34,989 nucleotides of DNA from a virus (lineage: Duplodnaviria > Heunggongvirae > Uroviricota > Caudoviricetes): the IMG/VR virus record IMGVR_UViG_2778261298_000001; one strand, 5' to 3'. The notes beneath the pieces were generated by a model. That model ran no database searches. It was given only the letters and a program-made list of their open reading frames with translations, and had not been told where the DNA came from. The first letter of the stretch is position 1; the number at the start of each line of letters is the position of its first letter. Both the position numbers and the translations under genes were made by a program. Shown here one piece after another: positions 1,449 through 34,702 of the stretch.

Positions 1449-2024
1449 CTATTTAACATACTTGACTGTTAAACTTATAATTTTACCAATTATTTCAATG
1501 TCTTCTATCTTACATTCGAAGGCTCTGTTTCCACCCTCGACGAAGATTCTTCCACCGGGTAAACGAGTAATGTCACGGATCGTTATTTCGCCATCAATAC
1601 TTATTACCCATTTACCATCACGTATATCATCAAATTCCTTATCACAAATAAATTCAGAATTATTATCTGTGATTACAAAAAGATTCTTGAATGCCGACGG
1701 TAGAAATTCTCTATCGAAAATATAAAAACCGTCTTCACACAAGGCCCCATCAGATAATACATATTTAGCAACTTCCATAGTATTTGTATTACCTGAAGTT
1801 TGCTTTGAACCATGCCCGGTTGTGAGCCAATTAAGCGAGGTGCCTGTTTCAAGGGCGCACTGGATTACCCATTCTGCTGGGAATGAGTCACGCATGTAGC
1901 GTGTGGCGAGTGTACTTTTAGAGATTCCTAAATGATCGCACAACGCCTGTCGAGTCTTGAATCCATAAGCTTCTACCATGCGCTCTATGGCGCCTCGTCC
2001 GCCTTTCTCCAAATTCATGGTCAC
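1449..2024 (-). CDS. cI: CI-type immunity repressor (186 CI-like)
   Basis: 191 aa, leftward, upstream of int in the same operon as in 186. N-terminal helix-turn-helix-like segment (GFKTRQALCDHLGISKSTLATRY). GGAG RBS before the ATG. Confidence 0.75.
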   Translation of the reverse strand: MTMNLEKGGRGAIERMVEAYGFKTRQALCDHLGISKSTLATRYMRDSFPAEWVIQCALETGTSLNWLTTGHGSKQTSGNTNTMEVAKYVLSDGALCEDGFYIFDREFLPSAFKNLFVITDNNSEFICDKEFDDIRDGKWVISIDGEITIRDITRLPGGRIFVEGGNRAFECKIEDIEIIGKIISLTVKYVK

Positions 2025-2042
2025 TCCAAGTGAACTTTTATC

Positions 2043-2071
2043 TTGACGATTTCAATGTGCGATCGTATGTT
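2043..2071 (+). promoter_or_regulatory. Candidate rightward lytic promoter (pR-like) in the switch region
   Basis: TTGACG, 17-nt spacer, TATGTT, lying between the divergent repressor and apl-like genes. Confidence 0.4.
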
Positions 2072-2143
2072 TATGGTGTTCACAAAATACAAACGATCCG
2101 TATTCGTCCTGATTAATCATCATTAAACGAGGAATGTTGCATC

Positions 2144-2365
2144 ATGAGACCTAACATTTCAATCACTCTTACCACGCCTCATGTGACTATTGAACGCTAT
2201 AGCGAGCTGACAGGGCTATCCATCGATACCATCAATGACATGTTGGCTGATGGACGCCTTATCCGTCACCGTCTGCGCAAAGATAAAAAACGCGAAAAAG
2301 TGATGATCAACATAGCAGCAATGACCGTTGATGCGCTTTCAGAATGCAATCTAAACCTTAATTAG
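2144..2365 (+). CDS. apl: Apl/Cox-like small DNA-binding protein (excisionase / repressor of pL)
   Basis: 73 aa, first gene transcribed rightward from the switch region, with a GAGGA RBS. Called by position as in 186. Confidence 0.6.
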
Positions 2366-2397
2366 TTCGATTCTGAAATACATCAGAGGCATTGACC

Positions 2398-2907
2398 ATG
2401 TTTGATTACCAAGTTTCCAAACATCCACATTTTGATGAAGCCTGTCGTGCATTTGCACTGCGCCACAATCTGGTGCAACTGGCAGAACGTGCAGGCATGA
2501 ATGTGCAGATTCTGCGGAACAAGCTGAACCCAGCTCAGCCTCATTTATTAACCGCACCAGAAATCTGGCTGCTTACCGATCTGACTGAAGATTCAACGCT
2601 GGTAGATGGTTTTCTGGCACAGATTCATTGTCTGCCATGTGTACCGATTAATGAGGTGGCAAAAGAGAAACTGCCACATTACGTCATGAGTGCAACCGCA
2701 GAGATCGGGCGTGTTGCTGCAGGTGCGGTGTCTGGCGATGTAAAAACCTGTGCCGGTCGTCGTGATGCTATCAGCAGCATTAACTCTGTAACACGACTGA
2801 TGGCGCTGGCGGCTGTTTCATTGCAGGCCCGTTTACAGGCTAATCCTGCGATGGCGAGTGCAGTTGATACCGTGACTGGCCTCGGTGCTTCATTTGGTTT
2901 GCTGTGA
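2398..2907 (+). CDS. cII: CII-like lysogeny establishment protein
   Basis: N-terminus [20 protein letters not shown]... matches my recollection of 186 CII. Start moved to the ATG at 2398 (track used TTG 2392); AGAGG RBS. Confidence 0.75.
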
Positions 2908-2914
2908 GGTGCTT

Positions 2915-3115
2915 ATGCTGACGAAAGAACCATCATTTGCATCGCTGCTGGTTAAACAAAGCCCGGCAATGCATTACGGTCACGGCTGGATCATGGGTGA
3001 GGATGGTAAACGCTGGCATCCGTGCCGTTCACAAGATGAATTGCTGGCAGAACTATCTACGAAAAAACGGGGGAACAAATGGCTATTGAAGGCGCTGCGG
3101 CGACTGTTCCATTAA
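2915..3115 (+). CDS. Small early protein, Fil-like by position
   Basis: ORF downstream of cII; internal ATG at 2915 has a GAGG RBS. Function assigned from position only. Confidence 0.4.
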   Translation: MLTKEPSFASLLVKQSPAMHYGHGWIMGEDGKRWHPCRSQDELLAELSTKKRGNKWLLKALRRLFH

Positions 3116-3420
3116 GCCCCGGTGAACGCCTGAATGGACTTAATCACATAGCGGAATTAAGGGCGAAAGTTTTTGGTTTGAATATTGAGTCAGAGCTTGA
3201 GCGGTTTATTAAAGATATGCGTGATCCACGGGATATCAATAATGAACAAAATAAACGGGCACTGGCTGCCATATTCTTTATGGCAAAAATTCCAGCTGAA
3301 CGTCATAGCATCAGCATTAATGAGCTGACCACTGACGAAAAGCGGGAGTTGATTAAAGCAATGAATCATTTTCGTGCAGTGGTGAGCTTATTTCCCAGAC
3401 GGCTAACCATGCCGAATTAA
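3079..3420 (+). CDS. Hypothetical early protein
   Basis: 113-aa ORF with ATG and a GGGGGA RBS; no motif recognised. Confidence 0.45.
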   Translation: MAIEGAAATVPLSPGERLNGLNHIAELRAKVFGLNIESELERFIKDMRDPRDINNEQNKRALAAIFFMAKIPAERHSISINELTTDEKRELIKAMNHFRAVVSLFPRRLTMPN

Positions 3421-3487
3421 CCAACTAATGAAATTAATGGCGTAAACCCGCCGGGCATCCCTTTATCTAAATTCAGGAGAATTGCTT

Positions 3488-3721
3488 ATGCGTAATATTG
3501 AAACCCTCACGACCAAAACCGGACCGGATGATGCAGGTCTTAATCTTTTACTGACAGAGGCTCGTCTGGAAGAACGCCGGGCAAGGGCTGAAGCAATGGC
3601 TGCTCGCCTCGATAGCCTGGCGTGTCATATCACCTCCCGCCAGCTAAACCACGTCGAAGCGGCAGAACTGCTGCGTGTGACTGCTGAAGCAATCCAGAAC
3701 GAAGCGCAGGAGATCCACTGA
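3488..3721 (+). CDS. Hypothetical early protein (possibly DUF2732-type)
   Basis: About 77 aa with an AGGAG RBS. Resembles the small conserved ORFs in the P2 early operon; family assignment is from memory. Confidence 0.4.
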   Translation: MRNIETLTTKTGPDDAGLNLLLTEARLEERRARAEAMAARLDSLACHITSRQLNHVEAAELLRVTAEAIQNEAQEIH

Positions 3722-3948
3722 TGGCTGATGCAATGGATCTCGTACAGCAGCGCGTTGAAGAAGAACGCCAACGCCATATCCGTGCTGCCCGTGCCAAAAC
3801 GCCGGGCGTGTCCCGCGTGCTTTGCGTTGAGTGTGAAGCGCCAATTCCGCCAGCACGCCGCCGTGCCATTCCTGGAGTGCAGCTTTGCATTACCTGCCAG
3901 GAAATCGCAGAGCTGAAAGGCAAACATTACAACGGAGGTGCTGTATGA
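3721..3948 (+). CDS. TraR/DksA-family C4 zinc-finger protein
   Basis: CVEC...(17 aa)...CITC four-cysteine motif in a 75-aa protein; start overlaps the upstream stop (TGATG). Confidence 0.7.
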   Translation: MADAMDLVQQRVEEERQRHIRAARAKTPGVSRVLCVECEAPIPPARRRAIPGVQLCITCQEIAELKGKHYNGGAV

Positions 3949-4802
3949 GCACCATCCTGAAATGGGCGGGTAATAAAACCGCCATTATGTCCGAACTGAA
4001 AAAATACCTTCCTGCTGGCCCGCGACTGGTTGAACCTTTCGCGGGTTCTTGTGCTGTGATGATGGCGACGGATTACCCCAGCTATCTGGTTGCGGATATT
4101 AATCCTGATTTAATCAACCTCTATAAAAAGATTGCCGCTGATTGCGAAGCGTTTATATCTCGTGCCAAAGTTTTATTTGGGGAAGCAAACAGTGAGCTGG
4201 CTTATTACAACATAAGACAGGAGTTTAATTACTCAACTGAAATTACTGATTTCATGAAGGCGATATATTTCCTGTATCTCAATCGTCACGGTTACCGTGG
4301 TTTATGTCGCTATAACAAGAGCGGGTATTTCAACATTCCCTACGGTAATTATAAAAATCCGTATTTCCCTGAAAAAGAAATTCGCGCATTTGCAGAGAAA
4401 GCCCAGCGGGCAACGTTTATCTGCGCGAGCTTTGATGAAACGCTGGCGATGCTGCAGGTGGGGGATGTGGTGTATTGCGATCCGCCGTATGACGGTACGT
4501 TTTCCGGCTATCACACTGATGGTTTCACTGAAGATGACCAGTATCACCTGGCATCCATTCTTGAACATCGGTCATCAGAAGGACATCCGGTCATTGTTTC
4601 TAACAATGACACATCCCTGATTCGTTCGCTGTATCGCAATTTTACTCACCACTATATCAAGGCAAAACGCAGCATCGGCGTGTCAGCTGGCGAGGGTAAA
4701 TCTGCAACAGAAATCATTGCTGTTTCCGGGCCGAGCTGCTGGTTGGGATTTGATCCTTCGCGTGGCGTGGATAGTTCTGCCGTGTACGGAGTGTGTGTAT
4801 GA
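3945..4802 (+). CDS. dam: Phage-encoded DNA adenine methyltransferase (Dam family)
   Basis: N-terminal LKWAGNK...EPFAGS AdoMet-binding region and catalytic DPPY motif (VYCDPPYDG). GGAGG RBS upstream of the ATG at 3945. Confidence 0.85.
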
Positions 4803-7213
4803 GTCATGACGATATGAACAATTGCAGCGGCTTTAACGAGGCCGCCGCAGCATTTTCATGGAACGGCTCGAAAAAGGCCATTAACCCTTATCTGGACCCG
4901 GCGGAAGTTGCGCCGGAGTCTGCACTTTCAAACCTGATCACTCTGTACGCTGCCGATAATGAGCAGGAACAACTGCGCCGCGAGGCACTGAGTGAGCAGG
5001 TCTGGGAGCGTTATTTCTTTAATGAATCCCGTGATCCTGTCCAGCGCGAAATGGAGCAGGATAAGCTCATTAGCCGGGCAAAGCTGGCGCATGAGCAGCA
5101 GCGTTTTAATCCGGACATGGTCATTCTGGCGGACGTAAACGCCCAGCCTTCCCATATCAGCAAGCCGCTGATGCAACGTATTGAATACTTCAGCAGCCTG
5201 GGCAGGCCAAAGGCTTATTCCCGCTATTTGCGTGAGACGATTAAGCCATGTCTGGAGCGACTGGATTGTGTACGTGACAGTCAGCTATCTGTTTCTTTCC
5301 GTTTTATGGCAAGCCATCAAGGGCTGGAGGGGCTGCTGATCCTGCCTGAAATGAGCCAGGATCAGGTGAAACGCCTGTCCACCCTGGTAGCAGCGCATAT
5401 GAGCATGTGTCTTGAGGACGCTTGTGGTGATTTGTATGCCACCGATGACGTTAAGCCAGAAGAAATCCGCAAGACATGGGAAAAGGTGGCAGCGGAAACC
5501 CTGCGTCTGGATGTTATCCCGCCTGCGTTTGAGAAACTTCGTCGGAAAAGAAACCGCCGCAAACCAGTGCCCTATGAACTCATCCCGGGTTCGCTGGCGC
5601 GTATGTTGTGTGCCGACTGGTGGTATCGGAAATTATGGAAGATGCGTTGCGAATGGCGGGAAGAGCAGTTGCGTGCTGTCTGCCTGGTCAGCAAAAAAGC
5701 ATCCCCCTATGTCAGCTATGAAGCCGTGATGCATAAACGTGAGCAGCGCCGTAAGTCGCTGGAGTTTTTTCGTTCTCATGAACTGGTGAACGAAGACGGC
5801 GACACGCTGGATATGGAAGATGTGGTAAACGCCAGCAGCAGCAACCCGGCGCATCGCCGCAATGAGATGATGGCCTGTGTTAAAGGTCTGGAGCTTATCG
5901 CGGAAATGCGCAGTGACTGTGCCGTTTTCTACACTATCACCTGTCCGTCGCGTTTCCATTCCACGCTCAATAACGGCAGACCAAACCCGACCTGGACAAA
6001 CGCGACGGTAAGACAAAGTAGCGATTATCTGGTCGGCATGTTTGCTGCATTTCGTAAGGCTATGCATAAAGCCGAGTTGCGCTGGTATGGCGTGCGGGTA
6101 GCTGAGCCGCATCATGACGGTACTGTGCACTGGCATCTCATGTGTTTCATGCGTAAAAAAGACCGCCGCGCCATCACTGCATTACTGCGTAAGTTTGCCA
6201 TCCGTGAAGACCGCGAGGAGCTGGGCAATAACACGGGACCACGCTTTAAGTCTGAGCTGATAAACCCGCGCAAAGGTACGCCAACAAGCTATATCGCGAA
6301 ATACATCAGTAAGAACATTGACGGGCGTGGTCTGGCTGGGGAGATCAGCAAGGAAACGGGTAAATCCCTGCGTGATAACGCTGAATACGTTAATGCCTGG
6401 GCGTCTCTGCATCGTGTTCAGCAATTCCGCTTCTTTGGCATTCCGGGGCGTCAGGCTTACCGTGAACTGCGATTGCTGGCTGGTCAGGCGGCAAGGCAAC
6501 AGGGTGACAAAAAAGCAGGTGCGCCGGTACTGGATAACCCGCGCCTTGATGCCATTCTGGCTGCTGCTGATGCTGGTTGTTTTGCCACCTATATCATGAA
6601 GCAGGGCGGCGTACTGGTTCCCCGTAAATATCACCTCATCAGAACCGCTTATGAAATCAACGAAGAGCCAACCGCCTATGGCGATCACGGTATTCGTATT
6701 TATGGCATCTGGTCACCCATTGCAGAGGGCAAGATCTGCACTCATGCGGTGAAGTGGAAAATGGTTCGTAAGGCCGTTGACGTTCAGGAGGCGGCAGCCG
6801 ACCAGGGCGCTTGCGCCCCTTGGACTCGTGGCAATAACTGTCCCCTTGCTGAAAATTTGAACCAACAGGAGAAAGATAAATCAGCTGATGGGGACACCAG
6901 AACGGATATTACCCGCATGGATGACAAGGAGTTGCACGATTATCTGCACAGTATGAGCAAAAAAGAGCGCCGGGAACTGGCAGCAAGGTTACGCCTGGTT
7001 AAGCCGAAACGGCGTAAGGACTACAAACAGCGAATTACAGATCATCAACGACAGCAGCTCGTCTATGAACTGAAGTCCAGAGGATTTGATGGCAGCGAGA
7101 AAGAGGTCGATTTACTCCTTCGCGGTGGCAGTATTCCGTCAGGAGCAGGCCTGCGTATCTTCTATCGGAACCAGCGTTTGCAGGAAGATGATAAGTGGCG
7201 AAACCTGTATTAA
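4799..7213 (+). CDS. A: Replication initiation endonuclease (P2 gpA / 186 A family, rolling-circle)
   Basis: About 800 aa with the HxH-type motif [14 protein letters not shown] at 4799 overlaps the dam stop. Confidence 0.85.
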
Positions 7214-7305
7214 TTACGCGGGTTAACAATTCGTGCTCTTAATAATACCAGGCATATCAGGCTGATGAACGTAAAAAAACGTTTTACATCAGTAAGATTA
7301 TTATA

Positions 7306-7325
7306 TACTGTAAATATAAACAGTA
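7306..7325 (+). promoter_or_regulatory. LexA operator (SOS box) overlapping a promoter
   Basis: TACTGTAAATATAAACAGTA matches the TACTG-(AT-rich 10 nt)-CAGTA consensus. TATACT (-10-like) lies immediately upstream; the AGGAGG RBS and the ATG at 7366 follow. Confidence 0.7.
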
Positions 7326-7365
7326 GTTATATATACAGTATTGCTTTGGTGTCATAGGAGGAAAG

Positions 7366-7554
7366 ATGCAGGACTATTTTTTGGAGTCTTTGAAGCTCCA
7401 GCGCATTGATTTTTTTCTTAAGCTTGTAGCGGCTAGTGAGTGTAGTGATGAAGAGAAGGGGCTGGCTCTGCAGTGGGTTTCTGAACTGACAGATGAACTC
7501 ATGGCAAAAATCAGAACCCACGAATACAACCGCTCAATGGATGTCATCAGCTGA
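7366..7554 (+). CDS. SOS-controlled small protein, candidate Tum-like antirepressor module
   Basis: 62-aa ORF with an AGGAGG RBS directly downstream of the LexA box. Functional call is by position and analogy with the 186 SOS operon. Confidence 0.45.
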   Translation: MQDYFLESLKLQRIDFFLKLVAASECSDEEKGLALQWVSELTDELMAKIRTHEYNRSMDVIS

Positions 7555-7564
7555 GGTGACTTTT

Positions 7565-7798
7565 ATGCGCATTGAAATAATGATCGATAAAGAGCAGAAG
7601 ATTAGCCAGTCTACACTGGACGCCCTTGAATCCGAGCTTTACCGCAATCTGCGCCCCCTGTATCCCAAAACGGTAATTCGTATCCGCAAAGGTAGCTCTA
7701 ACGGTGTGGAACTGACCGGACTGCAACTGGACGAAGAAAGAAAACAAGTGATGAAAATTATGCAGAAGGTGTGGGAAGACGACAGCTGGCTGCATTAA
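7565..7798 (+). CDS. DinI-family protein
   Basis: MRIEIMIDKEQKISQSTLDALESELYRNL...KVWEDDSWLH has DinI-like length and N-/C-terminal features. Own GAGG RBS; different frame from the upstream ORF. Confidence 0.7.
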   Translation: MRIEIMIDKEQKISQSTLDALESELYRNLRPLYPKTVIRIRKGSSNGVELTGLQLDEERKQVMKIMQKVWEDDSWLH

Positions 7799-7933
7799 GA
7801 AACGTTGCTGGCGTCTGAACTTGTTTCTGGCGTCAGCAAGGTTGAACAACGAGCCCTTGCGAGGCGTTAGCTCTGTAGTGCATGTCTATGCCGCATGAGA
7901 TCGCATGATCGTTTGAGGATCGTTTTTGCTAAG

Positions 7934-7958
7934 GCCCGCCAGAACTGGCGGGCTTTTG
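7934..7958 (+). terminator. Intrinsic terminator after the SOS operon
   Basis: GCCCGCCAG-aa-CTGGCGGGC hairpin followed by TTTTG. Confidence 0.6.
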
Positions 7959-8002
7959 CGTAGATAATGCACCTGCATGAAAACCACTACATAAAGCGGG
8001 CA

Positions 8003-8021
8003 GGCGTGGCGGGGATACGAG
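8003..8021. other. Candidate cos (cohesive end) site
   Basis: GGCGTGGCGGGGATACGAG; the first 13 nt match the 19-nt cohesive end I recall for P2/186 (GGCG[A/T]GGCGGGGAAAGCA.). Recalled, not verified. Confidence 0.4.
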
Positions 8022-8111
8022 CGCGCGTTGCAAACCATGTCGATGCTGTTATCATTTGCAGCAAGTTTTCAAAGTGCTAAAGCATTCTTTAATTCCAAGG
8101 TAGGTATAGAT

Positions 8112-10052
8112 ATGATAGCCGGGTTGTTTATCCGTAACGTCAAAACATATCAAGGCATAAATTATATTCCTTTGACAGATGCTCCAAATTTTAGCGGTTT
8201 TTTAGGAAATAATGGGATAGGGAAAAGCTCAATACTTGAGGCATTGGATGTAATATTTAATGCTAAAGAGTGGAATTATAATACAGCTGTCAAAAAGAGC
8301 GGCATAGAAAAAACCAGCCCACATATTGTACCGGTTTTTATATTGGAGGAGGATTTTTTTGATTCTGAGACACTCCCTTTTGCAAAAACGCTAGATGCTT
8401 TAGCTAGGGAGGTTAGCTTAGAGGACGCTACAAACTCACAAACAAAAACTATTCTTGAAAATTTTATAAGTCATCGTGATAGACTTTTTGCACGAAATGA
8501 TATGCAAGGGCAGTTAATTATTCCTATTGGACGCCTTCATAATAATAATATGTCATTATCTGTTTTAGCAGGTAGAAGTCTATCTACTATAATGGAAAAA
8601 GATATATTTGGTGCCGGATTCAAGTTAAGTGAAGGTATAGAGTTAGCTAAACATTTTCAAGTTTTATTTGATTATATCACTGGTAAGTTAGAATATTTAT
8701 ATATACCAAAAGAGATTGATACTGAGGTTTTTACTAAGCTTGAGAGTATTGGAACTCAAGTATTGATGGGTGAATCGCTGCATGAAATTCTTGATAGAAT
8801 AGTTGGTGAGTCAAAAATTGGAGAAATCAACAGAGAACTAAGCGGATTTCTTGAAGATATCTCAACGAAGCTAGTTAACTATACGTATAGAACGCCTTCG
8901 GATAGGCAAAAAAGAATTCAAAAAAAAGAAGTCTATAACTTAATTATACAAGCGTTTTTTAACGTCAGAAAATTACATAAAACCCACAATGGCGAGCATT
9001 TTTTAGAAATTAGTAATTTGAGTTCGGGGGAAAAGCAGAAGGCTATTATTGATGTTGCGCATGCATTGCTGACAAAGCATAGAAGTAATAGTGATAATTT
9101 AATCATAGCCATAGATGAACCTGAGTCTTCATTGCACATGTCTGCTTGTTTTGAACAATTTCAAGCGTTATCAGAACTAAGTTTAGGATGTAGGCAACTA
9201 TTGTTTTCCTCTCATTGGTATGGTTTTCTCCCCACCTTGGAAAAGGGAACTGTTACAATAATAACTAAAAAAAATAATGAGCATCTTTTTGATCTGATCA
9301 ATTTAGCATCTTACCGGGAAGAAATAAAACAACTTGTTCGAGATAGTAGGGGAAAGTTACCATTTGATATTAGAATTAAAAGTATGAATGATTTTACTCA
9401 GTCATTATTATCTAGTGCAACAGGTGAGAAACCATATAATTGGTTGATTTGTGAGGGTTCATCGGAAAGAATTTATCTTTCAGCATATTTTAAGGATTTG
9501 ATAAAGAATCATAATCTTCGTATTGTACCTGTTGGGGGGGCGTCGGAAATTAAAAAAATATATAACTATCTCTCTGCCTGCTATAAGGATGTCGAAGGGG
9601 AGATTACCGGAAATATATATTTGTTAGCTGATACTGATAGCCAGTTGGTCAGATATGACGTCGGAACATATCAAAGATTACATTGTAAAAGATTTGTTTA
9701 TGATTCGTCTAAAAACAGGGCAATCTTAGTTAAGATAGACTCAAATCCGGTATCGCCTGCAACTGAGATAGAGGATGTTTTGAACGCAAAAATCTATTAC
9801 CAGACCTTATTGTCATTTGCTGGTGATTACGATTATTTAAGTTTCATTAATAATATTGATGCTCCAAGTGATAATCTGGAATCTTACTCAGCTCTTGATC
9901 TCAGAGTTAGTGAAAAAAATGCCATAAATAGATTTTTTGATGATGGAAATAATAAGTTTTTATTCGCAAAAAGATATGTTGAATTAATGACGGAAGAAAA
10001 TAGTGTTCCAGAGTGGATTAGTAAGATTAGAGAGGTAATGACTTCAGCTTAG
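8112..10052 (+). CDS. ABC-type ATPase fused to a TOPRIM-like nuclease domain (OLD/Gabija/PARIS-like); candidate anti-phage defence cargo
   Basis: Walker A GNNGIGKSS (about 8205..8231), ABC signature LSSGEKQ (about 9013..9039), Walker B/D-loop LIIAIDEPESSLH (9099..9125) and H-loop-like LLFSSHW. Then a TOPRIM-like LICEGSSE (about 9441..9467), PVGGASE and LLADTDS (about 9621..9641). Start set at the ATG at 8112 (MIAGLFIRNVK, typical ABC N-terminal strand). Markedly AT-rich compared with flanking phage genes. Confidence 0.75.
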   Translation: MIAGLFIRNVKTYQGINYIPLTDAPNFSGFLGNNGIGKSSILEALDVIFNAKEWNYNTAVKKSGIEKTSPHIVPVFILEEDFFDSETLPFAKTLDALAREVSLEDATNSQTKTILENFISHRDRLFARNDMQGQLIIPIGRLHNNNMSLSVLAGRSLSTIMEKDIFGAGFKLSEGIELAKHFQVLFDYITGKLEYLYIPKEIDTEVFTKLESIGTQVLMGESLHEILDRIVGESKIGEINRELSGFLEDISTKLVNYTYRTPSDRQKRIQKKEVYNLIIQAFFNVRKLHKTHNGEHFLEISNLSSGEKQKAIIDVAHALLTKHRSNSDNLIIAIDEPESSLHMSACFEQFQALSELSLGCRQLLFSSHWYGFLPTLEKGTVTIITKKNNEHLFDLINLASYREEIKQLVRDSRGKLPFDIRIKSMNDFTQSLLSSATGEKPYNWLICEGSSERIYLSAYFKDLIKNHNLRIVPVGGASEIKKIYNYLSACYKDVEGEITGNIYLLADTDSQLVRYDVGTYQRLHCKRFVYDSSKNRAILVKIDSNPVSPATEIEDVLNAKIYYQTLLSFAGDYDYLSFINNIDAPSDNLESYSALDLRVSEKNAINRFFDDGNNKFLFAKRYVELMTEENSVPEWISKIREVMTSA

Positions 10053-10061
10053 TCATTACCT
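10033..10061 (+). terminator. Hairpin overlapping the stop codon of the cargo gene
   Basis: AGGTAATGAC-ttcagctta-GTCATTACCT inverted repeat followed by an AT-rich tract. Confidence 0.45.
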
Positions 10062-10077
10062 GATTATATTTATTCAG

Positions 10078-11109
10078 TTACATGAGGTCATAAAATTCGA
10101 ATTTTATGACCTCATTATCTATCCAATTGTTAATTTCAATTATTTTCTTTTGTAGAGGAAGAAGTTCATTACGAACAAACACTTTACTCGCCTTCTCCAC
10201 ATCCCCAAACCCCCCGACATTATTAGGCATAATCCCCATCATCTGAGGCGGTACGCGGTGCGCCGCCATCATGTCATCACGGCTGACGTTCTTGATGTTC
10301 AGAAATTCATCCTTCGCTGCGACTTCTGACAATGGGATAATCTGAAGTCCGTCTTTTTTACCATTAGGCGAGTACATAAACAGATTGCGGAAGTTACCCG
10401 GACCTTTGGCGCTTTTCATAGCGTTACGGAGATTGTTCACATCTTCCTGGTTCTGCGCGGCATCGGTCATGTACATGATGAAGCCTGCATGGCTGCCATT
10501 GATGTAATACTTACGGCGGAACAGCGTGGCGGACTCGTTGAGCAGAGCGGATGGAATAGCAGAAAGATAGCCTGGCAGGCCGTAGATCTCCTGATTAATA
10601 TCCGGTTCCATCAGATGAAAGATGCTGCCTTTCGTGAACTGATACGGCTGGGTTGTCATACCGTATTGCACAAACCAGTAGGTATCTAGGTCTAACCCGC
10701 GTCGGGTGTATTTTGCCAGAGCAGGCTCAAGGGCTATAACTTCACCGAAGCGGTTCGTGCGTTTCTCCAGGTAGGCGTTACCAAATACCAGATAGTCCTG
10801 CACAAAACGTGAAAAAGCCTGCTGGCTGAGCAGCGGGTGAGGGATGTAGGTACTGGTCAGAATGTTGCATTTCACCGCAATTGGTGAGCTGTGATGCACG
10901 GCGGCGCGGAAGGTTCGTGCCAGTCCGTCAAAGCTGACGGGCGGCTCATACCAGCGATCCATCTGTACGCATTCCACATAGTCCAGCAGTTCACGGCGGT
11001 CCAGAACAGGAACGGGATCGCCAAAGCTGAATGCTTCGGCTGAAGTCTGGCTTTTATGCTTGAGCTGATTCGTCGCCGCAGCGCGGTTTTTCTTACTCTT
11101 TCCCATCAA
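10078..11109 (-). CDS. Q: Portal protein (P2 gpQ family)
   Basis: 343 aa; position and orientation as P2 Q, adjacent and co-oriented with the terminase large subunit. Confidence 0.85.
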   Translation of the reverse strand: MMGKSKKNRAAATNQLKHKSQTSAEAFSFGDPVPVLDRRELLDYVECVQMDRWYEPPVSFDGLARTFRAAVHHSSPIAVKCNILTSTYIPHPLLSQQAFSRFVQDYLVFGNAYLEKRTNRFGEVIALEPALAKYTRRGLDLDTYWFVQYGMTTQPYQFTKGSIFHLMEPDINQEIYGLPGYLSAIPSALLNESATLFRRKYYINGSHAGFIMYMTDAAQNQEDVNNLRNAMKSAKGPGNFRNLFMYSPNGKKDGLQIIPLSEVAAKDEFLNIKNVSRDDMMAAHRVPPQMMGIMPNNVGGFGDVEKASKVFVRNELLPLQKKIIEINNWIDNEVIKFEFYDLM

Positions 11110-22736: not shown

Positions 22737-23177
22737 ATGAATTACATATATTCCGCGACTACAAACTCTTTCTATCCGCTGGAGATGAAAGAGGATTACA
22801 CTCAAGCTGACTCATGGCCAGATGATGCTGTTGAAGTTGATGAGCAAGCGTATATTGAGTTTTCCGGATTACCGCCGAAAGGAAAAATCCGTATCGCTGG
22901 AGAAAATGGTTTTCCTGCATGGTCTGAAATTCCACCACCAACACATGAGGAACAGATTGCTGCAGCCGAACTGGAAAAGCAGCAACTGATTAATCAGGCC
23001 AACGATTATATGAACAGTAAACAATGGCCTGGTAAAGCGGCTATTGGTCGTCTGAAAGGTGAGGAACTGGCGCAATATAATTTGTGGCTGGATTATCTGG
23101 ACGCACTGGAACTGGTTGATACCTCCAGTGCTCCAGATATTGAATGGCCTACGCCTCCGGCAGTTCAGGCCAGATGA
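22737..23177 (+). CDS. Tail fibre assembly chaperone (Tfa/gpG-like), orientation A
   Basis: 146 aa with GGAG RBS; C-terminal ...D.S.APD.EWP..P motif shared with the convergent Tfa copy. Confidence 0.8.
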   Translation: MNYIYSATTNSFYPLEMKEDYTQADSWPDDAVEVDEQAYIEFSGLPPKGKIRIAGENGFPAWSEIPPPTHEEQIAAAELEKQQLINQANDYMNSKQWPGKAAIGRLKGEELAQYNLWLDYLDALELVDTSSAPDIEWPTPPAVQAR

Positions 23178-23751
23178 CATCCGGCGCGGTGCTGGTATCT
23201 GTTGCCGTCACCGCGTCAATGTAATCCAGCACGGCGTTAAGTCGGGTTGTTTCTGCCTGCGTCAACTTCCGTCCGGCCTGTAATTTCAGCTGAATCAGAC
23301 TAATGGAAGCCATTGCTGCATCAATCAGTGACTGGCGCTGTGCTTCTGCTGCGTCTACTGCGGCACTATGCTGTGCCTCAGTATCCGTCACCCATTTCTC
23401 ACCATCCCATTTATCATATGGCGTTAACGGGGCGATAGTGGTTGTATTTTCAGGGTAATCACCCGGAGCTGTGATTTCTTTCGATTCTCCTGTTTCGGTG
23501 CTATAGATGATTTCACCGCGATGGTCTGGCACATATTCCCATGAGTTAAAATCTGCAGAACGGCAGATTGCATAACCAGCTTTATGTGTAACTGGTGCAT
23601 CTAAACAAGAACATGCCGGTATACCGACGCCAACCGCAAGATATTCAGTTGATGTGGAAATATATTCCCGCGTTTCACCATCATAATTATAAACGGTTAT
23701 GTCTCCCGCTTTTATGGCAATGAGTTCGTTATTTAATACGGCTTTATTCAT
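23149..23751 (-). CDS. Tail fibre assembly chaperone (Tfa), alternate copy
   Basis: 200 aa; C-terminal ...DTSTAPDVIWPELPEA mirrors the plus-strand Tfa; inside the invertible segment. Confidence 0.75.
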   Translation of the reverse strand: MNKAVLNNELIAIKAGDITVYNYDGETREYISTSTEYLAVGVGIPACSCLDAPVTHKAGYAICRSADFNSWEYVPDHRGEIIYSTETGESKEITAPGDYPENTTTIAPLTPYDKWDGEKWVTDTEAQHSAAVDAAEAQRQSLIDAAMASISLIQLKLQAGRKLTQAETTRLNAVLDYIDAVTATDTSTAPDVIWPELPEA

Positions 23752-24210
23752 CAGGCAGCCCTCACGATATAATTAAAGGCAATGTTACGAGGTCGGTTTT
23801 CGTTTGCAGTTGGAACAACTCTGGAAGCATCGAATGTTACTCGCTTTGCATAACCACCTTTAATTGAATCAGATGAAGCATCTCCGATGACGCTGGTTGT
23901 AAAAACGCCAGAATCAGAAGGGTAGGTATTAAACCTGACATCCACTAATGCACCAATTATATTTCGAATGGCATCTCCCTGTGACGAAAGCAAGCTACGG
24001 TTAGTATCTATTCCTCTTCCGTCATCCCAGCCACGAATGAACTCACCACGTAAATCAGGCAATTTATTTGTCGGGTAAGCCTTTGCCAGTTCCGGGTATT
24101 CTTCAGCAGAAAAAGCCGCACCGTTGCATTTCAGCCAGCCTGTTGGCGGAGTGGCGGAAGGCCACGGAACAGGCACACCAACGGGTAATGCCGAACCTTC
24201 TCCCAAACCA
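23751..24210 (-). CDS. Alternate tail fibre C-terminal (receptor-binding) segment, promoterless in the current orientation
   Basis: Minus-strand ORF whose 5' end crosses the right crossover site and encodes ...GLGEGSALP..., the same junction motif as in H. It would be fused to the H N-terminus after inversion. Confidence 0.7.
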
Positions 24211-24223
24211 ACGTTTAAGAAAA
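24198..24223. repeat. Right Gin/Hin-type crossover site of the invertible segment
   Basis: TTCTCCCAAACC-AA-CGTTTAAGAAAA; inverted relative to the site at 22351..22376 (shared 15-mer TTGGTTTGGGAGAAG on opposite strands). Confidence 0.7.
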
Positions 24224-24278
24224 TGCAGCGATTACGGCTAACTGGCATCATCCCCTATTTTTATTCAGGGAGATGATC

Positions 24279-24845
24279 ATGCTTATTGGCTATGTACGCG
24301 TGTCAACAAATGACCAGAACACCGATTTGCAACGTAATGCGCTGAACTGCGCGGGATGTGAGCGGATTTTTGAGGACAAAATCAGTGGCACTAAGTCCGA
24401 CAGACCGGGGCTTAAAAAACTGCTCAGGACACTATTGGCAGGAGACACGCTGGTTGTCTGGAAGCTGGACAGGTTGGGGCGCAGTATGCGGCATCTTGTT
24501 ACGCTGATAGAAGAGTTGCGCCAGCGTGGTGTGAATTTCCGAAGCCTGACTGACAGTATTGATACCAGTACCCCAATGGGCCGTTTCTTTTTTCATGTCA
24601 TGGGTGCCCTGGCTGAAATGGAACGCGAACTGATAGTTGAACGTACCCGGGCAGGGCTGGCTGCAGCTCGTGCTAAAGGCAGAGTAGGTGGACGCCGTCC
24701 TAAGTTGACCACTGAACAGTGGGCACAGATTGGACGTTTACTCGAGGCCGGAGAATCAAGACAGCGTATTGCACTGATTTTTGATGTAGGCGTTTCTACC
24801 ATTTATCGAAAATTTCCGGCAAATAAGAGCAATAAATCTCCCTGA
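24279..24845 (+). CDS. Serine recombinase, DNA invertase (Gin/Hin/Pin/Cin family)
   Basis: MLIGYVRVSTNDQNTDLQ catalytic-serine N-terminus and C-terminal HTH (GRRPKLT...I). Start at the ATG at 24279 with a GGGAG RBS. Confidence 0.9.
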   Translation: MLIGYVRVSTNDQNTDLQRNALNCAGCERIFEDKISGTKSDRPGLKKLLRTLLAGDTLVVWKLDRLGRSMRHLVTLIEELRQRGVNFRSLTDSIDTSTPMGRFFFHVMGALAEMERELIVERTRAGLAAARAKGRVGGRRPKLTTEQWAQIGRLLEAGESRQRIALIFDVGVSTIYRKFPANKSNKSP

Positions 24846-32369: not shown

Positions 32370-34055
32370 TTATCCTAATCCTGGCCATACCATGACGATG
32401 ATTGTCCCTGCCAGCGTCAGCAGGACGTTGGCGATTGCGTAGGTGCCCGCATAGCCCAGCGCAGGGATGTTACTGCGAGCTGTATCACTGATGATCTCCA
32501 TTGCCGGCGCGCAGGTGCGTGCGCCCATCATTGCGCCGAACAACAGTGCGCGGTTCATTCGCAATACATAAGCACCGAACAAGAAACAGATAACCACGGG
32601 CACAAGACTGACAATTAATCCGGCAATCAACATCTGACCGCCAATCGCGCCCAGGCCGTTATTAATACCGCTACCGGCGCTCAGACCAACGCCTGCCATA
32701 AACACCATCAAGCCGAACTCTTTCACCATGCTTAATGCACCTTGCGGAATGTAACCGAAGGTCGGGTGATTAGCACGCATAAAGCCCAGCATAATTCCGG
32801 CGAATAACAACCCGGCAGCGTTCCCCATGCCGAAACTGAATGTGCTGAACTGGAAGGTGATCATCCCGATCATCAGCCCAATAACAAAGAAGGCGCAAAA
32901 TGCCAGCAGGTCAGTGACCTGGCTGTGAATCGAGATAAAGCCGATGCGATCGGCGATGGTTTTTACGCGACGGGCATCACCGCTGACTTGTAAAACGTCA
33001 CCTTTGTTAAGCACGACGTTGTCATCTATCGGCATCTCAATCTGGCTACGAATGACGCGGTTAAGGAAGCAACCGTGATCGGTCAACTTCAGTTGTGCGA
33101 GACGTTTACCTACAGCGTTATGGTTTTTAACGACCACTTCTTCAGTGACGATACGCATGTCGAGAAGGTCACGATCGAAAACTTCTTTACCGTTACGGAA
33201 GCTGGGATCGAGTCGGGCATGGGCGTCGGGATAGCCTACCAACGCTATTTCATCGCCCATTTGTAGCACGGCATCACCGTCTGGATTTGCCAGAATCCCG
33301 TTACGTCGAATACGTTCAATGTAGCAGCCGGTTTGTCGATAAATACCCAGTTCACGCAGATTTTTGCCGTCGGTCCAGGCCACCAGCTCCGGGCCGACGC
33401 GATAGGCGCGGATCACCGGTAAATAAACCTTACGGTTGGCATCAGTGTCCAGGCCACGTTCGCGGGCGATTTGCTGGGCGCTGGTCTGTAAGTCCTGATG
33501 CTGCAATTTCGGCAAGTAACGCGCACCAACAATCAAACTCACCAGACCGATTAAATAGGTTAAGGCATACCCGAGGCTCAGATTATCCAGTGCCAGTGAG
33601 AGCTGCCTGCTTTCCATGCCGGAATGACGCAGTGTATCGCCAGCACCGACCAGAACCGGTGTCGACGTCATAGAGCCTGCTAACATACCGGCCGTCAGGC
33701 CAATATCCCAGCCAAACAGCTTACCTAACCCTAAGGCGATCACCAGCGCACTGCCAACCATCACCAGTGCTAACATTAGGTAATTTTTCCCATCGCGAAA
33801 AAAAATGGAAAAAAAGTTCGGTCCGGCTTCAACCCCAACACAGAAAATAAACAGCATAAAGCCAAGATTAAGCGCATCGGTGTTAATGCTGAAATGTTGT
33901 TGGCCTAATAACAGCGATACGACTAAAACGCCAATGGAATTACCCAGTTGGATCGAACCAAGTCGTAACTTTCCGAGACATAGCCCAAGCGCGAGGACCA
34001 CAAATAATAACAGAATGTAATTCCCATTTAACAATTCGGCGACGTTTATATTCAC
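32370..34055 (-). CDS. ybjL: Putative transport protein YbjL (AAE-family transporter with TrkA-C domains)
   Basis: 561-aa multi-TM protein whose sequence I recognise as E. coli YbjL; the neighbours ybjM and grxA agree. Confidence 0.9.
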
Positions 34056-34324
34056 GGAGGCTAACTTCTTGTTTACTAGTAAGCTGTTGAAAGAAATGGT
34101 AATTTACGATAATGTTTTTTACCAGAATTCAGGGCGCAGATTCATTCAGCGCACCTAAACGATAGTAAAGTAACAATATATTTTACTAGTGTAATCACAT
34201 TAGGTATCAACGGCTATATGAATTGCGTTGGCCTATATTAGCATGGAATGCGAAGCGGCTTTATCTTACTGAACGCCACACTGGCGAAAAATGTGTTCGA
34301 TAGACGCAGTGTCAGGAGGAACGA

Positions 34325-34702
34325 GTGAAACATAAACAACGTTGGGCGGGGGCAATCTGCTGTTTTGTCCTCTTCATTGTGGTGTGCCTTTTTCTGGCGA
34401 CGCACATGAAAGGCGCTTTTCGGGCTGCCGGGCATCCTGAAATCGGCTTGCTGTTTTTCATTCTTCCTGGAGCAGTTGCCAGTTTCTTTTCACAGCGTAG
34501 AGAAGTCCTGAAACCTCTGTTTGGCGCAATGCTGGCGGCACCCTGTTCAATGCTTATTATGCGGCTGTTTTTTTCACCGACCCGCTCATTCTGGCAAGAG
34601 CTGGCATGGTTACTAAGCGCGGTGTTCTGGTGTGCGCTGGGGGCACTGTGTTTCTTATTTATCAGTAGTTTGTTTAAACCACAGCACAGAAAAAATCAGT
34701 AA
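34325..34702 (+). CDS. ybjM: Inner membrane protein YbjM
   Basis: 125-aa hydrophobic protein, GTG start; conserved position between ybjL and grxA. Confidence 0.8.
   Translation: MKHKQRWAGAICCFVLFIVVCLFLATHMKGAFRAAGHPEIGLLFFILPGAVASFFSQRREVLKPLFGAMLAAPCSMLIMRLFFSPTRSFWQELAWLLSAVFWCALGALCFLFISSLFKPQHRKNQ

Follow-up and report, generated by a model that had tools for sequence, protein, structure and literature searches.

A predicted stand-alone OLD-family ATPase-nuclease in the cos-proximal cargo slot of a P2-like prophage

What does a single AT-rich gene do between the cos site and the portal gene of a P2-like prophage? The question is raised by a stretch of 34,989 nucleotides (nt) from the IMG/VR virus record IMGVR_UViG_2778261298_000001, which in its full length is referred to below as the window. 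A first-pass annotation, made from the letters of the sequence and a list of its open reading frames (ORFs), had singled out an AT-rich island encoding one divergent ATPase-TOPRIM protein and had suggested an anti-phage system of the kind of P2 Old, Gabija GajA or fused PARIS, or a new subtype. The analysis presented here indicates that the gene likely encodes a stand-alone (Class 1-type) protein of the OLD family, in which an SMC/Rad50-like ABC ATPase head with a helical insertion is fused to a two-metal TOPRIM domain with a helical C-terminal subdomain, and which would serve in defence by analogy with characterised members of that family.

The ORF extends from stop to stop over positions 8028 to 10052 of the + strand and is the sole long ORF of the interval 8040-10061. 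The start codon given in Table 1, which yields a protein of 646 amino acids (aa), is taken as the real one because an identical 646-aa protein with the same start is present in the public collection (P0001), because homologues of 640-647 aa from many genera always begin with MI(A/V)G.F.RN.KTYQG, and because the Shine-Dalgarno sequence AAGGTAGG is located 6 nt upstream. The RefSeq start at 8037 is probably too early. The GC content of the gene (8112-10052) is 0.336 and that of the remaining window 0.523; over 8000-10000 it amounts to 0.32-0.38, with values of 0.43-0.62 in the surroundings, so that the description of the locus as an AT-rich island with one 646-aa ORF holds. The ratio of nonsynonymous to synonymous substitution rates (dN/dS) between alleles of the gene is 0.07-0.09, and the gene is under strong purifying selection.

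All seven motifs originally quoted for the protein could be located as reported: GNNGIGKSS (aa 32-40), LSSGEKQ (aa 303-309), IIAIDEPE (aa 331-338), SSHW (aa 366-369), CEGSSE (aa 447-452), PVGGASE (aa 473-479), and LLADTD (aa 504-509). An alignment of 48 family sequences, 51-84 % identical to the window protein, revealed that K38, S304-G306-E307, D335-E336, H368, E448, E452, G475-G476, D507, and D509 are invariant. Walker A, signature, Walker B, and H-loop make the N-terminal half an ABC-type ATPase, as is found in OLD proteins, and Pfam assigned it to AAA_15 (expectation value (E) 2e-14, aa 2-368) and AAA_21 (E 6e-13). The OLD-like_TOPRIM family PF20469 was matched by aa 444-490 (E 5e-6; 27.4 bits, the cut-off being 23.2; profile positions 6-56 of 67). 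With all three families above threshold, the proposal of a divergent ABC-ATPase and TOPRIM protein of the OLD kind was confirmed. As predicted from the sequence, intact residue sets for ATP binding and hydrolysis and for the OLD two-metal site are present on one chain and are invariant across the family.

Searches of the Protein Data Bank (PDB) sequences with the protein and with the family profile did not return an OLD structure, only Walker-A-level matches to SMC and to a retron ATPase; the protein is considered divergent because OLD structures are not reached by sequence alone. The matches in NCBIfam were to ABC transporters and were all sub-threshold, while PHROGs placed the protein in the unannotated family phrog_4747 (2.4e-19). 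A full-length AlphaFold2 model built on the family alignment had a predicted local distance difference test score (pLDDT) of 81 and a predicted template modelling score (pTM) of 0.73. Foldseek gave GajA (7e-14), the retron-Eco8 OLD (3e-13), and the OLD protein of Thermus scotoductus (2e-12) as its best PDB matches, and these were the sole solved structures to match both halves of the protein. Two of the checks proposed in the first-pass annotation, profile hidden Markov model (HMM) searches and structure prediction, thus resulted in similarity to the OLD family. The ATPase head is most similar to the heads of SMC, Rad50, RecN, and RecF.

The predicted helical insertion in the ATPase (aa ~200-290) was modelled with low confidence (pLDDT 50-74, with low-confidence loops at aa 257-266 and 284-292). 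It holds the invariant stretches IPKEID..FTKLE..LMGE and YxYRTPxDRQ, with P199, E201, F207, T208, L210, E211, M219, G220, E221, Y257, Y259, T261, R265, and Q266 as invariant residues, and its segment YRTPxD aligns with HFPTPT of the P2 Old family in a profile alignment. The insertion domain of Thermus OLD has been described before (PMC7049728). The strictest conservation outside the catalytic motifs is that of the insertion stretches, in or beside the regions modelled with the least confidence. These stretches may form an interaction or sensing surface.

OLD nucleases use a two-metal site made up of a Glu for metal A, an acidic residue at +4 for metal B, a DxD motif, and a downstream S/T-x-E (PMC7049728). 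The same pattern is seen in the window protein as E448 (metal A), E452 (+4, metal B), D507-T-D509, and T551-E552-I-E554, all invariant or nearly so, the correspondence being one of residue pattern and order only. In the C-terminal part, T551, E554, and K615 are invariant. When the C-terminal 247 aa were searched alone, PF20469 was the sole Pfam match (29 bits); the C-terminal PF20469 TOPRIM by which OLD proteins are recognised is thus present, yet its match is marginal and partial. The residues after the TOPRIM motifs, about 130 in number, had been noted as lacking a recognisable motif. They do not constitute a separate domain: aa 425-646 modelled alone form one compact unit (pLDDT 92, pTM 0.89), in which the TOPRIM sheet is joined by a beta-hairpin (residues 523-541 of the full-length protein) and by a helical subdomain, with helices at 553-644 that come after the TOPRIM. 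The unit resembles the TOPRIM of retron Eco2 (9i2f_C, E 1.2e-3, template modelling (TM) score 0.51), its best match among solved structures. Of the OLD structures, the closest is the Class 2 protein from Burkholderia pseudomallei in its C-terminal region (6nk8, E 5e-3, TM 0.45/0.50). In the models, Thermus OLD is less like the nuclease half in shape than the Class 2 and retron type are.

The same data bear on the alternative of a fused PARIS protein, in which AriA and AriB would form one polypeptide (Class 4 OLD) that is triggered by anti-restriction proteins such as Ocr and kills via cutting of the tRNA anticodon stem-loop. The best PADLOC match of the window protein is the AriA model, although it covers the ATPase half only; a fold search with the nuclease half also returned AriB (8ux9_A, E 0.037, TM 0.32), and two Pseudomonas homologues located inside Type I restriction-modification (R-M) operons would suit an anti-anti-restriction guard. 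Rousset et al. (2022) labelled the domains of the window protein AAA_15/AAA_21/DUF4435. PF20469 and DUF4435 (PF14491) serve as discriminating domains in the PARIS literature, and current Pfam does not find DUF4435 in the C-terminal half of the protein at E<=10, nor in any of the 48 family members, all of which match PF20469 at E<=1. Comparison by hhalign of the nuclease-half profile with full-length AriB from E. coli B185 and O42, taken from Table S2 of Rousset et al., gave probabilities of 0.1 % and 0.5 %, the top 50 full-length fold matches do not include a PARIS chain, and the PADLOC AriAB model matches the Walker A stretch only. A fused PARIS protein, one of the options initially put forward, is therefore highly improbable.

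A distant relation to P2 Old had also been suggested, and this was borne out: BLASTP aligned 262 aa at 24 % identity, starting at the ABC signature and reaching into the TOPRIM, and the two proteins belong to separate families. A list of 120 matches to P2 Old, mostly of 580-600 aa, has zero overlap with the family of the window protein. Alignment of the two family profiles by hhalign reached a probability of 93.7 % (E 1.9e-7). Its 374 columns begin at Walker A, take in the insertion domain, reach as far as the second TOPRIM motif, and end before the DxD, at aa ~495. With the profile of the nuclease half alone, the P2 Old family was found in the correct TOPRIM register (E 0.005). The two families are, on these comparisons, homologous but not orthologues; an orthologue of P2 Old is ruled out by the low identity, the non-overlapping families, and the end of the alignment at aa ~495.

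P2 OLD was found to be a tRNase that acts on the tRNA anticodon stem and senses RecBCD loss and ori hairpins (PMC12445682, bioRxiv 2026.07.10.737580). Could the window protein be an enzyme of the same type, i.e., a tRNase with RecBCD inactivation or phage replication intermediates as its trigger, which stops lambda-like phages and kills recB or recC hosts? P2 Old is the only characterised relative that can be detected by sequence through the ATPase-TOPRIM junction, both genes are prophage cargo of the same P2 hotspot, and tRNA and other RNA are the targets of the retron Eco2 TOPRIM, to which the nuclease half is nearest in fold. The low identity to a separate family with another length and C-terminus, in an alignment that stops short of the DxD, argues against such a transfer, as do the full-length fold neighbours GajA and Eco8 OLD, which are DNases. 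Moreover, the OLD protein of Vibrio cholerae (Vc OLD) is a RecBCD-independent DNA nickase (PMC12392090) and YbjD is likewise RecBCD-independent (PMC13261556), so that trigger and substrate are not transferable within Class 1. A tRNase of the P2 OLD type is for these reasons regarded as unlikely.

A sister group of the window protein was seen in IMG/VR contigs of enterobacterial P2-like phages (L083-L099), of which the gpA is up to 97 % identical to that of the window. The genes (~5001-6965 of each locus) encode ABC-ATPase and OLD-like proteins of ~650 aa with 30-36 % identity to the window protein; by Pfam, the ATPase alone is recognised in them, and the PADLOC 'Old' model gives a partial match (1.7e-17). 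In being located on the gpA side and pointing to gpA, the genes have the position and direction that are classical for P2 old. With this sister group, at least three distinct OLD lineages are carried by P2-like phages.

OLD classes are defined by gene context. In the window, the gene stands between a DinI-like gene and the portal gene, which is convergent to it. With one genome scanned per species, 53 essentially full-length loci were obtained with 29-56 % identity (nearly all 38-56 %), spanning Gamma- and Betaproteobacteria, Bacteroidota, Cyanobacteria, Neisseria, Actinobacillus, Acinetobacter, and Alistipes. When the ORFs within 7 kb or less were clustered, there was no neighbour family present in more than 4 of the 53 loci, and among the 95 immediate neighbours no Pfam family was seen more than three times. 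Neither a helicase nor a reverse transcriptase nor a DUF4435 partner was found in the window or in the 53 other loci, in line with the earlier remark that a partner gene is lacking. As no partner recurs in the 53 loci, the window gene is a Class 1 (single-gene) OLD by the context-based definition used in the field. The descriptive traits of Class 1, a short protein without a C-terminal helical domain, do not apply, as the protein has 646 aa (525 in Thermus OLD, 585 in P2 Old) and helices after the TOPRIM. It is thus atypical for Class 1, being longer and having a helical C-terminal subdomain, but these traits are descriptive and outside the context-based definition. To speak of a new subtype was an overstatement, both in view of this definition and because the exact protein, with the same reading, is already contained in Table S5B of Rousset et al. 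(2022) as no. 164.

Two other classes were tried and rejected. Class 2 OLD, i.e., Gabija GajA, is at variance with a downstream gene that is the convergent portal gene and with the lack of a UvrD-like helicase among the recurrent families of the 95 immediate neighbours. A Class 3 OLD, the effector of a type I-B retron, would be accompanied by a reverse transcriptase, which is not among the annotated or recurrent neighbours; an Rfam scan of 7000-10400 did not reveal an RNA family, giving only chance eukaryotic matches far under threshold, with the reservation that the coverage of retron non-coding RNAs (ncRNAs) in Rfam is limited.

The family to which the protein belongs is discrete, functional, and horizontally mobile. 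It is carried on P2-like prophages and on genomic islands. An exhaustive HMM search of 1.84 billion representative sequences retrieved 819 proteins at E<=1e-3, of which 295 reached E<=1e-30, the latter corresponding to about 295 clusters at 50 % identity; the best 150 of the matches are nearly all full-length and colinear, with 625-700 aa. Longer members of 748, 862, and 934 aa (P0290, P0348, and P0370, respectively) have the 640-aa unit at the N-terminus followed by an extra C-terminal domain. By tblastn, no match was obtained in 50,697 GenBank phage records; prophages and IMG/VR contigs are the only places in which the gene was encountered. In 51 of 52 loci, its AT content exceeds that of the flanks (median GC 0.33 vs 0.44), with gaps of up to 29 points, as in a metagenome-assembled genome of the Aeromonadaceae in which the gene has a GC content of 0.32 and the flanks 0.61; it is AT-rich whatever the GC content of the host, for which recent transfer or selection (e.g., xenogeneic silencing) may be responsible. 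A Comamonas homologue abuts an integrase gene and one of Acinetobacter a P2-type portal gene. An integrase search across the loci, seeded with one Comamonas integrase, returned nothing, the seed being too narrow for the result to be informative. About one in ten immediate neighbours scores against PADLOC defence models, by a rough count from a summary table, including Type I restriction endonuclease and specificity subunits, MkoB, mad3/mad5, SduA, and several PDC candidates.

Homologues in Pseudomonas fluorescens PS691 (L002/L011) and Pseudomonas abyssi (L019) are part of a Type I R-M operon with the order hsdM-hsdS-X-hsdR; in L002, the gene overlaps hsdR by 4 nt, and a ZorA-like gene (Zorya) is located 5 kb from the P. 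fluorescens homologue. This embedding was found in only two to three of the 53 loci and is therefore not a rule of the family. The prrC gene occupies the same slot in EcoprrI (hsdM-hsdS-prrC-hsdR), where it encodes an anticodon nuclease that is unrelated to the window protein. The likeness to PrrC is one of context only, and the window gene does not adjoin an R-M system. Because the hsdS-X-hsdR embedding in two Pseudomonas species equals the PrrC slot, a trigger by inactivation of R-M is hinted at. The protein might accordingly belong to a distinct OLD lineage in which the insertion (YxYRTPxDRQ / IPKEID..FTKLE) and the helical C-terminus read a trigger unlike that of P2 OLD or Vc OLD, e.g., the inactivation of R-M by anti-restriction proteins, but this seems rather improbable. 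If true, a one-gene 'guard' of R-M would have been captured by P2-like phages, with a sister lineage at the classical old position in other P2-like phages.

Phage defence has been reported for the single-gene OLD proteins P2 OLD (PMC12445682), Vc OLD (PMC12392090), and YbjD (PMC13261556), and by analogy the window gene probably defends against other phages. The exchangeable cargo slot that it occupies, the R-M embedding of two homologues, the neighbours with PADLOC matches, and the AT-richness relative to the flanks are also in keeping with defence. The course of events proposed for the stand-alone OLD protein follows from P2 OLD, Vc OLD, GajA, and the retron-Eco8 OLD in the same manner. In the lysogen, the gene would be expressed from a promoter of its own just inside cos, and the protein would wait as an auto-inhibited oligomer kept together by the insertion domain. 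Its ATPase half would sense a cue of the infecting phage, for which an aberrant or replicating DNA structure and a phage protein are both candidates, and ATP binding and hydrolysis would free the TOPRIM site, which would then cut nucleic acid. Infection would be halted, probably by abortive infection with loss of the cell, by which the lysogen population and the resident prophage would be protected. GajA and Eco8 OLD cut DNA, while Eco2 and AriB cut tRNA. The chances that the substrate is DNA, which would be nicked or cleaved, are about even; cleavage of tRNA or other RNA is a serious candidate at somewhat less than even chances.

Several points weigh against a defensive OLD nuclease. On the side of the enzyme, the Pfam TOPRIM match is barely over threshold and ends before the DxD, where the profile alignment to P2 Old ends too; the nuclease half alone reaches solved structures only at E 1e-3 to 5e-3 with a TM of about 0.5; and the equivalent of the catalytic Lys/Arg (K562 in B. 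pseudomallei, R487 in T. scotoductus) is not assignable among the conserved K526, R527, K560, and K615. The PADLOC 2.0 matches are weak and partial (AriA 2.7e-15, Old 3.6e-13), on account of which current defence finders may miss the protein. On the side of the function, Rousset et al. (2022) list the protein but it is absent from their table of evaluated systems, and many neighbours are housekeeping genes, the association with defence islands being modest. In YbjD, the TOPRIM is dispensable for the phenotypes observed (PMC13261556), and the archaeal OLD Cran1 acts in the cell cycle (PMC12796447), so that not every OLD protein defends.

The last three of these points, together with the resemblance of the ATPase head to those of SMC, Rad50, RecN, and RecF, would fit a role other than defence, either one in DNA metabolism, through which the cell or the element would be served in replication, repair, packaging, or chromosome handling, in the manner of Cran1, or that of a selfish toxin of the addiction type. 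However, of 5426 complete E. coli genomes, about 1270 contain the flanking P2 sequence but no more than 10 the gene itself, which is thus dispensable for the biology of P2-like phages, and the slot holds alternating unrelated cargo. The patchy distribution across phyla at 38-56 % identity and the foreign GC content point to horizontal transfer and not to a core function; two loci are inside R-M operons and some neighbours are defence genes. A non-defence role is accordingly judged to be very unlikely.

The window is a P2-like prophage with the gene order integrase, CI, replication genes, gpA (4793-7213), a 62-aa ORF, the DinI-like gene (7565-7798), cargo, portal, terminase, and capsid genes. 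The coordinates of the features are collected in Table 1. They agree with the description of the locus as a gene between cos and the portal gene and as single-gene cargo in the cos-proximal hotspot of P2. Its equation with the variable old/tin region of P2 was correct insofar as the gpA-gpQ hotspot is the same (Rousset et al. 2022), but cos separates the window gene from the place that old and tin have in P2: there, they are located between gene A and cosR, and Q starts 187 base pairs (bp) after cosL. The P2 cos flank aligns to 7974-8015 of the window at 81 %, and the sequence shared by other E. coli P2-like prophages stops at about 8030-8034. The promoter-like and terminator-like sites at the two ends of the cargo are consensus matches only, the number of promoter-like sites in the region being no higher than in shuffled sequence.

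Table 1 Coordinates in the window of the predicted OLD-family gene, the parts of its product, and the boundaries of the cargo
Feature	Coordinates	Strand	Remarks
cos core (cohesive-end site), left cargo boundary	8003..8021	.	GGCGTGGCGGGGATACGAG compared with P2 GGCGAGGCGGGGAAAGCAC
Promoter-like site TTGCAA-16-TATCAT, extended -10 TG	8028..8055	+	Consensus scan, 9/12 matches; in the 90 nt between cos and start codon
Shine-Dalgarno sequence AAGGTAGG	8098..8105	+	6 nt before ATG 8112; read off the sequence
Coding sequence, 646-aa stand-alone OLD-family ATPase-nuclease (predicted)	8112..10052 (including stop codon)	+	ATG at 8112
ABC (SMC/Rad50/RecF-like) ATPase head, ~aa 1-413	8112..9350	+	Walker A 8205-8231, signature 9018-9038, Walker B 9102-9125, H-loop 9207-9218
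Predicted helical insertion in ATPase, ~aa 200-290, at the place of the OLD 'dimerization domain'	8709..8981	+	AlphaFold2 helices 204-285
OLD-type TOPRIM core, ~aa 443-545	9438..9746	+	CEGSSE 9450-9467 (E448, E452), PVGGASE 9528-9548, DTD within 9621-9638 (D507, D509), CKR 9684-9692
C-terminal part of nuclease unit, aa 551-646	9762..10049	+	Acidic TEIED motif 9762-9776, then helical subdomain with invariant K615, Y622
Terminator-like hairpin, right cargo boundary	10033..10061	+	11-bp stem, then T-rich tail; overlaps stop codon; consensus match only
Portal gene (gpQ), right flank, outside cargo	10078..11109	-	Convergent; 17 nt past hairpin

Other strains hold other cargo in the gpA-gpQ hotspot. 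In a near-identical P2-like prophage of E. coli Ecol_AZ147 (L009, locus 4914-8181), the slot after cos is occupied by genes for an AAA family ATPase and an S8 family peptidase, followed by IS421. The same slot beside the portal gene is used by an 81 %-identical Salmonella allele (264 blocks in the index), by a 62 %-identical E. coli allele, and by alleles with 58-100 % identity in IMG/VR contigs. The gene of E. coli ETEC6335 (L010, NZ_CP122588.1, locus 1501-4623) is 99 % identical in DNA but is annotated as two ORFs ('hypothetical protein' and 'ATP-dependent nuclease'), and this copy is probably frameshifted or interrupted. The same strain has an insertion of ~720 bp with a 141-aa ORF between the DinI-like gene and cos.

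Elsewhere in the window, positions 22737-24845 contain genes for tail-fibre assembly (Caudo_TAP) on both strands (22737-23177 on + and 23149-23751 on -), a Collar-domain fibre tip (23751-24251, -), and a serine recombinase of the Hin/Cin type (24273-24845); the segment has a GC content below that of the remaining tail module and looks like an invertible tail-fibre segment. Host DNA is present on both sides of the prophage (32370-34702 and 1-340), with an Asp-Al_Ex/TrkA_C permease gene (32370-34055, -) and ybjM (34325-34702) in the right flank. The near-identical strain XJW9B263 carries a gene for a 'GapS1 family protein' directly to the left of the integrase gene, at the start of the window.

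The reading offered in the first-pass annotation essentially re-derives the catalogue entry of Rousset et al. (2022). Vassallo et al. recovered the reference P2 Old only, and the literature search did not find a paper that names the accession or describes a tested homologue of the window protein. What is added here is that the choice between OLD and PARIS is settled, the family and its range are defined, its stand-alone status is shown, and the nuclease half is described. The family does not create a new category, as the architecture, the hotspot, and the likely role of the protein are already in the literature, and it will not surprise the specialist. The Class 1 OLD proteins characterised so far are three, P2 OLD, Vc OLD, and YbjD, and they differ in trigger, in substrate, and in their need for the nuclease. 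The window family is a fourth, well-delimited Class 1 lineage of about 300 clusters at 50 % identity that has a range from E. coli to Bacteroidota and Cyanobacteria and is strikingly well preserved along the entire protein. The gene is compact (2 kb, with a putative promoter of its own) and natural in an E. coli prophage, and is thus easily testable; testing the family would help to show how one ATPase-TOPRIM chassis is rewired to different triggers and targets.

The place of the protein among known systems can be summarised as follows. PARIS combines an ABC ATPase of the AAA_15/21 kind (AriA) with a nuclease of the TOPRIM fold (AriB), as the window protein does, and is often borne by phages or satellites at cos-proximal hotspots, but AriB carries DUF4435, to which the window protein has neither a domain match nor, at the level of AriB, profile similarity or more than a weak resemblance in fold. 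Retron Eco2 (Ec67) contains the TOPRIM nearest in fold to the window nuclease, which cuts tRNA acceptor stems and other RNA; there it is fused to a reverse transcriptase and regulated by multicopy single-stranded DNA (msDNA), whereas the TOPRIM of the window protein is joined to an ABC ATPase. GajA and the B. pseudomallei OLD (Class 2) and the retron-Eco8 OLD (Class 3) are among the best full-length structural matches, and the Class 2 C-terminal region in 6nk8 consists of a TOPRIM and a helical part like the nuclease half of the window protein. These proteins work with a UvrD-like GajB or with a reverse transcriptase and ncRNA, neither of which accompanies the gene here or in the 53 other loci, and in PADLOC the GajA models extend over no more of the window protein than its Walker A region or its ATPase.

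P2 Old (Class 1; UniProt P13520; 585-586 aa) is likewise a single-gene ABC ATPase and TOPRIM protein of P2-type phages encoded in the gpA-gpQ hotspot. The EGxxE and DxD motifs are common to both proteins and their homology is colinear from Walker A to the second TOPRIM motif; the window protein is 60 aa longer, its C-terminus past aa ~495 is not alignable, and its gene differs in orientation relative to gene A and is located across cos from that of P2 Old. The OLD protein of T. scotoductus (PDB 6P74) and Vc OLD, which has been described as a clade of its own (PMC12392090), are also of Class 1. Thermus OLD has 525 aa and does not contain the C-terminal helical domain that is present in the 646-aa window family. 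Both share with the window protein the stand-alone gene, the plan of ATPase, helical insertion (in the window protein a predicted one), and TOPRIM, and the two-metal residue pattern, the key residues being K48, D313, and D468/D470 in Vc OLD, as given in its description, and K38, D335, and D507/D509 in the window protein.

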